Of a stretch of DNA of 44,281 nucleotides, positions 13,584 through 44,281 are shown one piece after another. How positions within the stretch are numbered: position 1 is the stretch's first letter; each line of letters starts with the position of its first letter. The stretch comes from an uncultured Clostridia bacterium (GTDB lineage: Bacteria > Bacillota > Clostridia > Christensenellales > UBA1242): NCBI GenBank assembly GCA_944332315.1, contig CALVJT010000018.1:1-44281 (forward strand), read 5' to 3'. Below the pieces are notes generated by a model. That model was not told the DNA's origin. It searched no databases and was given only the letters and a program-made list of their open reading frames with translations. The translations under genes and the position numbers were made by a program.

Positions 13584-15258
13584 CTATTCAAAAGCAGGCA
13601 TATTTATTGTAATATCTTCTTTGTAGACTATAGTAAATTCCTTTCTAGTCCACATCTCACCTGCATCTATCAAAGGCGAATAAGAATATAATGCCTTAGC
13701 ATACTGCGTAATTACACCCCCACTAGGAGAATATTTAAAAAATTCATAAATCCACCAGTCAAGATATATGTCATCAAATACATCACTTTGAGTATCTTGC
13801 CCGGCAATTTGTTGTGATTCCAAACCAAAAATGCTACCAATTTTACTGTATATGAAATACTCATTATATGGAATCTTATCTTCACCGATGATATTATTAG
13901 AACCCAATGCGTTCTTGAGCGCCAAATAAGCATTAGATCCGTATCCTACTATCTGCACACCATCGCCTTGCTTAAGGGCTAAATCAGTTACTAGTTTCCC
14001 TTCTGTATCAAAAATGGAGCCATCAATAATAGCAGTGCTAGAAGATGAGTAGTTCATTAAATTAAAATACACTGCATACTCTTCAGTCTCAGTAACATCC
14101 GCTAGAGAAGAGCGCTCTACTACATTCTGTGCATTGTTTTCAAATATAGCAGACACTAGTATCGCTGGAGTGCTACTCGAACCATAATATAATATTATAT
14201 TAGCAGCTTGGAAATCTGGGTCATAGTCATTAAATCTACTATACCAACCTAGTGCTTCCGTAGCACGAACTAGTTCGTCTTCGATATTGAATATATATAC
14301 ATTCCACTGCCCTTCTTCATTGCTTGTCTTACCCAAAAAACTATTAATTGTTCCATAATCTATATTGAGAGACCCAGTATTATCAGAGTATTTAGAAACT
14401 AGGCTATCCGTGGCATCATTCCACATAGAACTTGCCATCAATGCTTGGACAGGGTCATAAGTCGATACCCTATCACTATACCATTTTGTTAGATCTGATC
14501 CATCGCAAACATAAATAGAATATGTATCGTCTAATGCTAAGTTTGTATAAGAAGCACTTAGGTTAACCACAAAACTATTTCTGGCACAATCTCTATCAAA
14601 AGTATTCGTTGTATCTGCATACACTACCACTTCTAATTTTGTATCTGTAATATCTGTGCCAGTATATTTGAAGTTTGATAACTGTGATAGAATATCAAAT
14701 GTCACACCCTTACGCACTTGCGTACTGGAATTCGACACAAATGCATACCCTTCATCAGATGCCGTTTCTACGGGAGTGGACATACTTGTTGTTCCATCAC
14801 TAAAACTATATGTGCCTTCTGTGAATGAAACGCCAGAAGTTATACTCTCAAATATATATTCAATACGCATATAATAATTGATGTCTAAGTTATTGTCATC
14901 TATACTAACATTTAACGAATCACCAACATTATTAAATCTCACTATTCCATTTTCATTCTGTTCATTTGTATAAGTCATCCCTATGCCAGTATCATAATTC
15001 ATTGCTGGAGTGTCCCAGTCAAAGACAATAGAGCCTGAAGCAGTTTTTGAATCACTGAGCAGTGAATAGGTCATAGATATTGCTAAAACAAAACCTAATA
15101 CAAACATAAAAAACAACAAAAAGACAAAAGTCCTCTTTTGTCTTGTATTATCCTGTTTTTTTATACATAAATTGCCATTAATTATTTTTGTAGGTTTGGT
15201 TTGTGTATTCGAATCCTTATATACCCCCCCCCCCCCCAAACATTATATTTTTTCTCAT
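13584..15258 (-). CDS. Putative phase-variable exported/surface protein (SipW-class-like signal); out of frame at the poly-G tract as assembled
   Basis: SD GAGGAGG, then ATG 15258 reads MRKNIMFGGGGGI* with G14. G13 fuses it to the 551-codon ORF, giving 557 aa with a hydrophobic segment and TYSLLSDSKTASGSIVF. Confidence 0.75.
15224..15237 (-). repeat. Homopolymeric G14 tract (C14 on + strand)
   Basis: Counted directly: 14 C at 15224-15237, starting at codon 8 of the gene. Confidence 0.95.
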
Positions 15259-15284
15259 AACATTCCTCCTCTTGCATTAACTGT

Positions 15285-15314
15285 AGTATACCACAAAATT
15301 AAAAATTATTGCAA
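15285..15314 (-). promoter_or_regulatory. SigA-like promoter of the poly-G surface protein gene
   Basis: TTGCAA-N18-TATACT with an extended -10 TG. Confidence 0.55.
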
Positions 15315-15374
15315 TTAATTTAACAAATTTATTATAAAATTATAAAAATATAAATAATATTGAAAAAAAAATTA

Positions 15375-15402
15375 AAAAACTCATTCTTTTGAATGAGTTT
15401 TT
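15375..15402. terminator. Intrinsic terminator after rplL
   Basis: AAAAACTCATTC-TTTT-GAATGAGTTTTT. Confidence 0.85.
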
Positions 15403-15422
15403 AACTATAGAAATAGGATAGA

Positions 15423-41629: not shown

Positions 41630-41880
41630 AAACTGCTCCCTTTTCTTTAGAATGTTAAATAAACAAATTATCTTAAAATATTAACCTTTGTTTACAATAT
41701 GGTGTTTTTTTACATTAGTAATATAATTTTGCAATGTTAAATATTTTTTATACTTAATTTAGTATAACACAATTGCCACTTTTTTTGCAAATAAATAAAT
41801 TTATTATTTTTATATTAAATTTTAAGAGATATTCATTATCTTAGTCCATAGATTCCCTTAATCTTGACTTTGTAAATGAT

Positions 41881-41916
41881 AAAAAAGCAACCCGATATTC
41901 CATCGAACTTGCTTTT
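41881..41916 (-). terminator. Intrinsic terminator after the DGR-target-like gene
   Basis: The minus strand reads AAAAGCAAGTTCGAT-GGAAT-ATCGGGTTGCTTTTTT. Confidence 0.65.
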
Positions 41917-42091
41917 CGAATTTTAATAAGTTATAAACAAACATCTTTTTATCCCACATTAATAATAAATAAATAATCATTTTATTTATGTGATTATAAT
42001 TTATGTTTATATATAATTTTTTTTCTAAGTTTAATTAATATAATAAATTTTGTATCAATTTATTCAGTAACTCAACTACAGATATTAAATG

Positions 42092-44271
42092 TTATACAAC
42101 AATAGAATTGTTTAATCCTCCATTCACGCCCGCAATTGTTATACTGTACTCACCAGTACTATTCTCTTTATTTGGCACAATAAAGGTAAATGTACTGCCT
42201 GTCTTTTGCCCTTCACCACCAAAATCAACTTGCCATAGGTACGGCTTAGATACCACTATCTTGTACTCTTGCCCTTGCATAAGTTGTACACTAATTGTTT
42301 GCGCACTTGCTATGTACATTTGCTCAATTATATCCTCGCCTTGCATAAAGTACACTACAGCACCCATATCCCCCGTTTGTGCCATCGTAACTGCTATACT
42401 AATATCACATATAGGCTTTTCTACCACACCACTTACATTAAAAGACTGCTGTATGTTGCTTAGCGTAAACTCTACTTGATTGCCACTTGTAGTATAAGAA
42501 TAATTGCAATAATTAGGTATACTGCCACTTGTTGCGCTTGTTCCTACAACTATTTCTTGCCCACCTATGTTTATAGTAAAGTTGTATGCGGATGTATCTA
42601 TATTATCATACACTAACTGCACTTGTCCGTTCAAAGTATTATCATTTTTTAAGGCATAAACTCCCTTGTTTTGTATTATTGTTGTTGCAATATCTCCCGA
42701 TTGTGGCATAACCACTACATCTCCCGTAGTAGCCCCCGCTGATACACTTGCTAGCACATTGTTTGCTAGTTCCTTAAGATTGAGATGGAGCGCAACCCGC
42801 ACGCCGAGATTATCGTGGACAATGGAATTGCTGTCGTCACCATCTGAGTAGACTTCGCGCGCGAGATTAGAGTTTATTGAAGTGTCGGAACGCAGCCACG
42901 CCGAGGAACCCGTTGCTCTATCGTACCCGTTTAGTTCCCATAAGCCTGTTCGTCCATCCTTTCCTTTTGTCCACGATGAACTATCTATCTCTGTACTTGC
43001 TGTTGGAGACCTATCACTCATGCATGTGACAATTTCACCCTCATCAAAATATCTATCTGTACCTTGTATTGTAGCTACCGAACCTGAGTCAGCACTGTCG
43101 TAGCCAGTATGTAGTACTTCAAATGCGCTTGGTAGCCACAGTTTATCATTATATGTATCGGTATCTTGTGTTCCCCAATTCGACCATCTATCTCCCAAGC
43201 CATCCATTCCGTTGCCTACATTAAAATATGTAGAATTGCCTCCATAACCGCTTACTCCAGAACCTGTTTTAGTGCCCCCGTCGTGCGAAACTCCACGAAA
43301 GTCATTCCAACCAGTTCCACCACTATTGTAGGATGTTTGGTATGTGCTACTTTGCCAGCCTCCTAAGTTCAAGAAGTCTGTTTTATCTTGTAAATCTGAA
43401 TTTTGTATTTCGGATGCTGTACTTGATGATAGTTGGTATGGCGCTACTACATATATATCTAATTGAGCCCCTGTAAACGCAGTTGATAGTGTACTATATG
43501 TATTTTTTATTACGGTGCGTATATCACTATTTGTATAACCACCTGAAGAGCCAAACCTTTGTGAACTTATATAGTTATCTACCATATATAGTGTAAGTAC
43601 ATCCTCATCCTTGCTTACACTGCGATATACCGCTTGCCAGTACTGAGCTGTCGCATCATTAATATTATTTGCGTTAGCAACATCATTTGTAGTTTCAAAT
43701 AGTTTTACTACTATTTGTGCATTGCCCTTTTTGCTGTTTGCCCCCACTTCGCCCCAAGTACTTTGGTCTCCATAATTGCCAAAGTCTTTGGCTGTTAGAT
43801 ATTCTACATCTGTGTCATTTGTTGGCACTTTTTTATCATTTGATGTATCACTATCTCCACCATTCCACACATTTGTATTGTTTACCTTGTTTAGTAAATC
43901 TAGCAGTACGCTTGCATTTATGCCTGTCGTGGTAAATAGTGGATCTGCACCACTATTATCCTCTTTTTCGCCAACAATTGTTACTGGTGCATTATCATAC
44001 CAAGAAGTATCATCACTGGGTCTGCCCGCTTGCGTCAGGGTGCCCCTATTTTGCAGCACGGGTTGCAGAGCCAGCACGAACAAGGTTATAAACGCCAAAA
44101 GCCACATTACTATTTGTAATGTAGCAGATTGTTGTGTTTTTATTAGATTTTTAGATTTGTTATTTATATAAACACTTTTTTCATTAAATTTTGTATCAAT
44201 TTTTGTGCTCTTTTTTATAGGGGTAGAACTACCTACCCCCCCCCCCCTACTTTTTTATTATCAAAAAACAT
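42092..44271 (-). CDS. Putative phase-variable surface protein with a DUF6273/CLec-like domain and DGR-like variable region; out of frame at the poly-G tract as assembled
   Basis: SD AGGAG, then ATG 44271 reads MFFDNKKVGGGG* with G12. G13 joins a frame that is open from 44254 into the 671-aa ORF, giving 726 aa. Contains a TM anchor and YTNSDIR, DKLWLPSAFEV and WLRS...GVRVALHLNL motifs. Confidence 0.78.
42782..42910 (-). other. Candidate DGR variable region (VR)
   Basis: Encodes SSAWLRSDTSINSNLAREVYSDGDDSNSIVHDNLGVRVALHL. Hand count 71/130 GC (55%) over 42781-42910 versus ~28-42% in sampled flanking 60-nt blocks; variable-looking codons are nearly all NNC/NNT. Confidence 0.65.
44236..44247 (-). 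repeat. Homopolymeric G12 tract (C12 on + strand)
   Basis: Counted directly: 12 C at 44236-44247, starting at codon 9 of the gene. Confidence 0.95.
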
Positions 44272-44281
44272 ATGCGCTCCT

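Follow-up and report, generated by a model that had tools for sequence, protein, structure and literature searches.

Background

Simple-repeat phase variation is a textbook subject for pathogens and has barely been charted in uncultured gut commensals. In Campylobacter jejuni, most targets are enzymes that modify the capsule, lipooligosaccharide or flagella; its tracts, typically G8-G12, are found in various places within genes, and the organism lacks mismatch repair. The Neisseria opa genes and the Vlp/Vsp-type genes of Mycoplasma form multigene surface families with conserved 5′ regions, in which a repeat within or close to the leader switches each copy on its own; the Opa repeats are CTCTT pentamers in the sequence that codes for the signal peptide, and mycoplasmas use promoter poly-A or inversions. 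Diversity-generating retroelements (DGRs) are known to act on remote targets in Treponema and Legionella, and in many DGR targets a hairpin follows the variable region (VR). Here we analyzed a 44,281-nucleotide (nt) stretch of DNA (the window; contig CALVJT010000018.1 of assembly GCA_944332315.1, or C18 among the 77 contigs of this genome) from an uncultured Clostridia bacterium with a 1.33-Mb genome of 36% GC. The window holds two genes in which a long G run directly follows a short leader, and an earlier reading of the sequence (the original prediction) had proposed that such genes make up a genome-wide repertoire of poly-G contingency surface genes, some of them remote DGR targets. The explanation that best accounts for our results overall, and that we consider probable, is a poly-G contingency family with a sub-family whose lectin-like domain has been rewritten by a DGR.

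This system resembles the C. jejuni phasome, which has dozens of intragenic G/C homopolymers in a small, low-GC genome, frame-based ON/OFF control and combinatorial surface diversity (PMC8437040, PMC13317227). Unlike in C. jejuni, the surface proteins themselves appear to be switched here, the tract occupies one fixed position behind a shared cassette and is 12-16 nt long, and MutS and MutL motifs are present. In another Gram-positive gut commensal, Bifidobacterium breve UCC2003, replication slippage in an intragenic G-tract controls a surface adhesive structure, the sortase-dependent pilus, as shown by maximum-depth sequencing (PMC9187656). However, B. breve has two pilus clusters with neither a shared 5′ cassette nor a hypervariable ligand site, as against about 24 genes here. 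The Neisseria and Mycoplasma families differ in that their hosts are pathogens, they have no DGR-type variable region and their repeats are of other types.

DUF6273 is a published C-type-lectin-like DGR target domain that has the VR at its C-terminus, and the genes described below share with such DGRs the target domain, the C-terminal VR, variation at codon positions 1 and 2 that appears adenine-linked and the use of one scaffold for several targets (PMC11792537, PMC10743442). They differ from the published DUF6273 systems in that the genome has no DGR reverse transcriptase (RT) or template repeat (TR), the targets are chromosomal, apparently membrane-anchored and located among housekeeping genes rather than being phage tail proteins, and they also carry a putative poly-G switch. 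In full-text literature searches, we found no paper that brings DGRs together with phase variation through repeats, and a 2025 review of phase variation leaves DGRs unmentioned. Homopolymer switching and DGRs are each established mechanisms; the two together on the same genes, in this lineage, appear to be undescribed. This case differs from the known ones in its host, a spore-forming gut clostridial lineage that is uncultured and has a small genome, in the uniform, portable 5′ cassette placed on surface proteins, and in the presence of both devices together.

Two window genes behind one leader design

The two genes lie on the minus strand and, as the original prediction had stated, share one layout: a Shine-Dalgarno sequence (SD) and ATG, a short leader, a G run, about 30-40 K/N/T-rich residues, a single hydrophobic helix and a large body. 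The claim that they are non-homologous holds for the bodies, which are unrelated, and fails for the 5′ ends: the promoter/leader cassettes are homologous, since an nhmmer profile built from the leaders matches locus 1 with an E value of 2.4e-6. Both genes are in frame at G13, which yields a product reading ...GGGGV..., and the assembly itself carries G14 and G12; therefore, both genes are OFF in this assembly. The window contains eight G10 words against 0.01 expected from shuffles, which excludes a chance origin of its G runs.

At locus 1, a putative promoter recognized by its consensus spans 15285-15314, with a -35 element TTGCAA (15314-15309) and an extended -10 element TGTGGTATACT (15295-15285). 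The SD and leader follow at 15238-15271 (SD GAGGAGG, 15271-15265; ATG, 15258-15256) and encode the seven codons MRKNIMF, the first G of the tract lying 21 nt past the ATG. The tract (15224-15237) is G14 and is followed by TATATAAGG, so that the ATG frame meets a TAA stop directly behind it. At G13, and likewise at G10 or G16, the ATG is joined to the frame at 13584-15239 and the gene reads MRKNIMFGGGGVYKDSN... over 557 amino acids (aa). The body (13584-15223) comprises a K/N/T-rich linker, a predicted transmembrane (TM) helix at about 15054-15146 and a predicted extracellular part of about 490 aa. It matched no Pfam or NCBIfam family, and a single-sequence AlphaFold2 (AF2) model (mean predicted local distance difference test, pLDDT, 36) resolved the TM helix alone, at residues 32-62.

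At locus 2, the window ends at the SD. The SD and leader (44248-44281; SD AGGAG, 44281-44277; ATG, 44271-44269) encode eight codons, MFFDNKKV, the first G lies 24 nt past the ATG, and the promoter (TTGATA ... TGTGTTATACT) is found on contig C46, whose end overlaps that of the window. The tract (44236-44247) is G12 and is followed by TAGGTAGT, with a TAG directly after it. The predicted peptide has 12 aa with G12, 726 aa with G13, where the gene reads MFFDNKKVGGGGVGSSTPIKK..., and 14 aa with G14. The body (42092-44235) consists of a basic linker, a predicted TM helix (about 44054-44116) and a globular region comprising a lectin-like DUF6273 domain and Ig-like beta-sandwiches, and its C-terminal domain, conserved in the family, ends in NNSIVV. 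The DUF6273 match (Pfam PF19789, C-type-lectin-like) lies at 42779-43174, residues 354-485 of the 713-aa translation, with an E value of 1.9e-6 and 28.3 bits against a cutoff of 23.5.

A portable cassette across the genome

The G/C homopolymer spectrum of the genome is bimodal: almost no runs remain by length 8-9, a gap separates 9 from 11, and 33 runs of 11-16 then follow. Among runs of at least 9, 24 out of 30 occupy the leader position: their G strand is the coding strand, and they start 19-27 nt (in most cases exactly 24 nt) past an SD-preceded ATG; two of these 24 have lost their upstream part at a contig end. The predicted genome-wide repertoire of poly-G surface genes is thus supported, and the design is kept in related uncultured Clostridia, as described below. 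This amounts to one switch in about every 55 kb, a density similar to that known from Campylobacter, the classic case.

Searching the genome with the leader profile by nhmmer returned 21 copies. The aligned cassette covers about 150 nt and runs from TTGATA through a spacer of about 17 nt (N17/18) to TGTGnTATACT and a short untranslated region with AATACAAGnGAAAAAGGAG, then on to ATG TTT NAT TTT AAT AAA AAR GTA and the G run; the encoded leader is mostly MFxFxNKKV. Its TTGATA-N17/18-TGTGnTATACT module aligns in at least 20 leader cassettes. Window locus 1 is more distantly related to the other members, with the form of the promoter unchanged.

The sequence behind the tract (TAGGTAGT, TAGATAGT or TATTTAGT) supplies stops in both wrong frames, and a single length class opens the long open reading frame. 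OFF peptides have 12-19 aa at the majority of loci; one locus gives 30 aa. At the 12 loci whose ATG and long body can both be seen, the assembly gives 3 ON and 9 OFF, near the one third expected for random phases.

Six of the 30 runs are not in leaders, and all look intergenic: one stands directly after a TATAAT box, three lie beside terminator-like hairpins or a tRNA, and there are two others (on C19 and C33). We also observed an intergenic family at C37:4660 (G12), C1:498 (G8), C69:4402 (G8) and C50:20484 (G8), in which GGTTCTATAAT-N6 precedes the G run and a conserved ...AGCAGAAAGAGCTTAGCAAAAGT... follows it. The G run at these sites is near a predicted transcription start and may act as a promoter-level switch or form the 5′ end of an RNA.

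Long G runs can also arise as sequencing or assembly artefacts, such as poly-G reads from two-colour chemistry. Many tracts are indeed near contig ends (12 of the 30 lie at most 500 nt away, as expected for repeated, heterogeneous leaders), and some ends are visibly corrupted, among them the low-complexity ends of C53 and C37, the end of L091 (a locus in a second assembly of this species) and the error-laden end of C46, which reads G7AG6 and is probably a duplicate of window locus 2. However, other tracts lie deep inside contigs (window 15224, C21:21789, C8:10644, C65:10426), at the same codon-level position behind a conserved leader; tracts recur in independent assemblies from other projects, and GGGG appears in annotated homologues. 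We therefore regard an artefactual origin of the runs as extremely improbable.

Tract lengths between and within assemblies

Length variation was judged from assemblies only. In one strain of a relative recovered from two samples (loci L051 and L052), the sole difference over 21,814 aligned bases was G12 versus G13. In related strains, tracts of G12, G13 or G15 follow related leaders, and tract lengths inside the genome span 11-16. In L091 (ENA ERZ24773290), which is 99.94% identical over 3.5 kb, window locus 1 has G20. These differences between assemblies, together with the 11-16 spread, fit hypermutable tracts and do not prove switching.

Several observations weigh against reading them as phase variation. 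The polymorphic run (L051:9449-9460; L052:9448-9460) is not a leader tract: it is intergenic, in a GC-rich, structured-looking stretch beside a tRNA in which Rfam found the tRNA only, and the leader run of the same locus is G13 in both samples. The G20 of L091 sits at a corrupted contig end with 3x coverage. Homopolymer lengths in metagenome-assembled genomes (MAGs) built from short reads may be off by at least 1, which makes individual ON/OFF calls uncertain, and any tract variation within populations of this organism, like its reversibility, is putative. MutS and MutL motifs occur in the genome; therefore, hypermutability cannot be attributed to missing mismatch repair.

The runs could instead act on RNA, with slippage of the polymerase or ribosome giving a constant small in-frame fraction, so that each tract would attenuate expression and would not be a heritable switch. 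In other systems, 12-16 identical bases in a row suffice for transcriptional slippage, and in the consensus most loci need one step to reach the ON length, which is trivially true of any length. The DNA itself, however, differs in tract length between assemblies and ranges from 11 to 16 within the genome, and annotated homologues occur in all three phases. An interrupted tract on C54 (G9AG5), and possibly the G7AG6 of C46, are as expected under slippage of DNA. RNA-level slippage, which does not exclude slippage of DNA, strikes us as an improbable account of the runs.

Conservation in relatives and other lineages

A scan for ATG-N18-GTA-G11+ that covered one genome per species yielded 48 loci; those with homologous leaders and bodies are in uncultured Clostridia MAGs, four in E09__bin234 and two in BRZ_MD__bin13. 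Gene 2, used as a protein query, gave 57 relatives, of which the best from another genome is 49% identical; a look-up of the exact protein found no record. GGGG is annotated within the first 25 residues in 20 of the 44 aligned gene 2 homologues. Some of these are annotated in frame, for example MFKNNKIVGGGGVGSS, MLKFKKKVGGGGVDRT and MIKNTKKLGGGGYLAAK, and others are called from a GTG or TTG bordering the run (MGGGG...). Among the remaining homologues, most are annotated from the methionine of the TM helix, as is usual for gene callers with an out-of-frame leader, and homologues were annotated in all three phases. If the switches work in the way that we propose, standard MAG annotation systematically mis-calls such genes as truncated or as starting with MGGGG, and so conceals the proteins with which the clade mainly faces hosts or phages. 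The flanks of five homologous genes contain sporulation and housekeeping neighbours as well as additional leader tracts.

One gene 2 homologue carries a G14 inside its body (L089:10003-10016), at the conserved ...FKTxGxVDVEVLADLL..., which splits the gene into calls of 85 aa and 597 aa.

The layout of an ATG, about seven codons and G11-13 also occurs in Gastranaerophilales/Melainabacteria MAGs (L015, L018, L024, L049, L039) and at L009, L011, L032, L034 (rumen MAG RGIG4980) and L006. The products at these loci have a prepilin-type N-terminus (AFTLAEVLI / AFSVAEAMI), which suggests that type IV pilin-like genes have independently come under poly-G switching in gut Melainabacteria. A Candidatus Poriferisocius chromosome (L004, L025; 61-63% GC) encodes paralogues of 1,159 and 1,425 codons with the leader MAGRFDSV and G12 or G11, one in frame and one out, a similar switch in a sponge-associated actinobacterial MAG.

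Proteins behind the tracts

The switched proteins have a common N-terminal plan (leader, basic linker, one TM helix) and three kinds of body. The first comprises proteins of 500-1,400 aa made of GLUG-motif repeats, some of them also containing Listeria-Bacteroides (Flg_new) repeats. DUF6273 proteins such as the product of window gene 2 make up the second, and the third is a small group without a known family: window gene 1 and its poly-G-led paralogues at C55:1023 and C68:15466, all of which share LLSDSKTA(S/T)G past the helix. Gene 1 has just two distant homologues, both without a poly-G leader. The LLSDSKTASG N-terminus of gene 1 has a possible resemblance to a SipW-type signal, for which NCBIfam gave no match. 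The GLUG and DUF6273 groups have a common C-terminal beta-sandwich that ends in NNSIV(I/V). No switched protein has a C-terminal anchor and a basic segment precedes the helix; therefore, the N-terminal helix is best read as a signal-anchor, probably with its N-terminus inside the cell.

The AF2 model of gene 2, built from 45 sequences, had a pLDDT of 78.6 and a predicted template modelling score (pTM) of 0.73, with pLDDT above 90 across the VR and a helix at residues 27-61. Searching this model with Foldseek identified phage DUF6273 proteins as fold neighbours (best E value, 1.3e-4); against the Protein Data Bank it gave nothing significant, with weak Ig-like matches only.

Putative DGR-type variable regions in four lectin-like genes

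The VR-like segment that had been noticed in one of the window genes proved to be real. It is 129 nt long (42782-42910, minus strand; residues 442-484 of gene 2), has a GC-rich scaffold (55% GC in a genome of 36% GC) and differs at about 39-50 variable positions from three paralogous copies, at C2:4879-5007, C61:1398-1526 and C21:23356-23484. Its translation reads ...WLRS...GVRVALHL and closes the DUF6273 match at the C-terminal end, which is where the VR lies in published DGR targets. All four copies end in a conserved, GC-rich 3′ sequence, GGCGTGCGGGTTGCGCTCC, a candidate IMH-like end. Just downstream of the window VR, the DNA fold weakly suggests a short candidate hairpin (CTAGCA-N7-TGCTAG, 42751-42769, minus strand); such hairpins lie about 15-40 nt behind the VRs and are of uneven quality, with longer stems in C2 and C21. 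Poly-G and VR co-occur as predicted, given that the C2 gene (G14), window gene 2 (G12) and the C21 gene (G14) are all poly-G led; the fourth VR gene, on C61, has its 5′ end cut off by the contig start.

The four VRs bear the mutational signature of a DGR. Among the three close paralogues, the invariant VR columns comprise 7 A, 30 C, 26 G and 27 T, and over the paralogue comparisons A accounts for 4-7 of 79-90 invariant columns, with 24-30 for each of C, G and T. The share of A among invariant columns is 8% in the VR versus 34% in the 300 nt upstream. The variable columns at codon positions 1, 2 and 3 number 18/17/4 in the VR versus 56/47/68 in a 900-nt flank; 4 of 43 third positions vary in the VR and 68 of 273 in the flank. 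Most variable VR codons are NNC or NNT, that is, of AAY design.

Rewriting by a retroelement is also suggested by the evenness of the scaffold. It is identical in the three close paralogues (about 80 non-A positions) despite flanks that differ at 17-25% of columns, and C21, in which half of the flanking columns differ, shares it save for about four positions at both VR boundaries. In relatives, the same VR protein motif is written with different synonymous codons. In L088, where both paralogues are poly-G led, one VR (L088:20624-20746) is canonical and GC-rich and the other (L088:11372-11488) is decayed, with 40% GC and drifted scaffold codons; together with the codon drift in relatives, this pair argues that the scaffold is not fixed by selection at the protein level.

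Ordinary diversifying selection, or gene conversion between paralogues, might have produced the variation with no retroelement ever involved, and the missing TR deprives us of a direct A-to-N comparison. Selection, however, neither depletes A from invariant sites (8% versus 34%) nor freezes synonymous positions. Gene conversion would have homogenized the variable sites too and is disfavoured because these remain mosaic. Both the domain and the position of the VR match published DGR targets. Taking these points together, we hold an origin without a retroelement to be very unlikely, and the most economical reading of the alignments is that at least the three close VR copies were rewritten from one template after their divergence, by a DGR.

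Search for a candidate retroelement

The prediction of remote DGR targets is half supported: the four VRs carry the mutational signature, and the assembled genome has neither a DGR-type RT nor a TR. The only RVT_1 match in the whole genome is on C2, divergently upstream of one of the VR genes. We rejected it as a DGR RT: C2:606-1799 (minus strand) encodes a 397-aa type VI retron RT (full-profile match to PADLOC RT_VI, E value 8.2e-55) with PQGxxxSP, NAxxH and YVDD motifs, an enzyme that could readily be confused with a DGR RT. Between this retron and the poly-G gene lie two copies (C2:2549-2662 and 3095-3209) of a dispersed intergenic repeat of about 110 nt, which has at least 30 copies on other contigs.

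The TR was expected to span about 130 nt, to contain GCGTGGCTGCGTTCCG...CGGGTTGCGCTCC and to have A wherever the VRs vary. The outcome of the searches counts against a DGR operating in this organism at present. No DGR-clade RT was found in the genome, the (I/L)GxxxSQ...YxDD motif being absent from all contigs; blastn against the genome (word size 7; the four VRs plus the inferred TR) matched the four VRs only; and no RT lies within 10 kb of the homologous targets at five loci of relatives. Likewise, blastn of contig C2 against the genome found no TR, and an RT motif scan of all the loci examined found the retron RT only. Exact scaffold words gave chance matches only in viral contigs, in phages of 55-74% GC; a scaffold scan of JGI metagenome contigs returned high-GC soil contigs only; and phage and plasmid collections contained no TR match. 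The accessory protein Avd was not noted in the bin either, although no search aimed at it was made. Strictly taken, the bin thus contains no DGR, which by itself speaks against the original prediction, yet the signature in the VRs contradicts that conclusion. The bin is estimated to be 98% complete, a marker-based figure that says little about mobile elements.

One reading of these negatives is that the VRs are fossils: a past DGR has disappeared, leaving fixed lectin sites and no operating device other than the poly-G switches. The failure to find a DGR-type RT or a TR in the genome or in the viral, metagenome, phage and plasmid sequences fits this reading, as do the four or so boundary differences of C21 and the synonymous drift and decayed copy in relatives, whose partly decayed scaffolds indicate that the DGR may have been lost in parts of the clade. 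On the other side, the scaffold identity of the close copies despite their divergent flanks, which extends to nearly all third codon positions, points to rewriting that followed divergence and would make any loss recent, and mobile elements are often left out of bins. We consider loss somewhat unlikely. Between a DGR on an unbinned element and one recently lost, we give slightly better odds to the unbinned element, because the scaffold is so clean.

A proposed two-tier system

Under the poly-G contingency explanation with DGR-rewritten lectins, about 24 contingency loci would each have a sigma-A-type promoter (TTGATA, TGTGnTATACT), a strong SD, an ATG, 6-8 leader codons and 12-16 G. Slipped-strand mispairing during replication would alter the length of the run by one G at a time. 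One length class (n = 13, 16... for the window genes) would join the leader to the body, and the other two frames would stop early and leave the gene OFF. In the ON state, the tract would be translated as Gly4-5, followed by the basic segment, the signal-anchor helix and the large external body. Were the loci expressed and their products displayed on the surface, at whatever rate the tracts switch, each cell would present a random subset of the repertoire. In the four-paralogue sub-family that includes window gene 2, the lectin-like ligand site would in addition be rewritten by adenine-specific mutagenic retrohoming from a common template.

We further propose, tentatively, a two-tier system in which the portable 150-nt cassette gates each of about two dozen anchored, adhesin-like genes independently and a trans-acting DGR on an unbinned element rewrites the lectin site; this possibility falls short of an even chance in our judgement. 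If it is true, the exposure of hypermutated alleles to selection would be set stochastically by the poly-G switch, which would make the system a commensal counterpart to antigenic variation in which two otherwise separate generators of diversity work on the same genes. The overlap with a DGR signature raises the testable question of whether stochastic gating and targeted hypermutation can be layered on one gene, and whether a DGR can act on chromosomal targets from a non-core element.

Other genes in the window

A 1,017-aa lipoprotein-like surface protein with MBG (YGX-type) repeats (Pfam E value, 9.5e-71) is encoded at 38576-41629 on the minus strand, with an ordinary signal and without a poly-G tract; therefore, some large surface proteins of this organism are unswitched. 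Also on the minus strand, at 24790-25332, is a gene for a 180-aa protein with N-terminal, zinc-ribbon-like CxxC pairs and an extremely acidic tail that ends in long D/E runs (…DDDDDDDDDDDDFDK).

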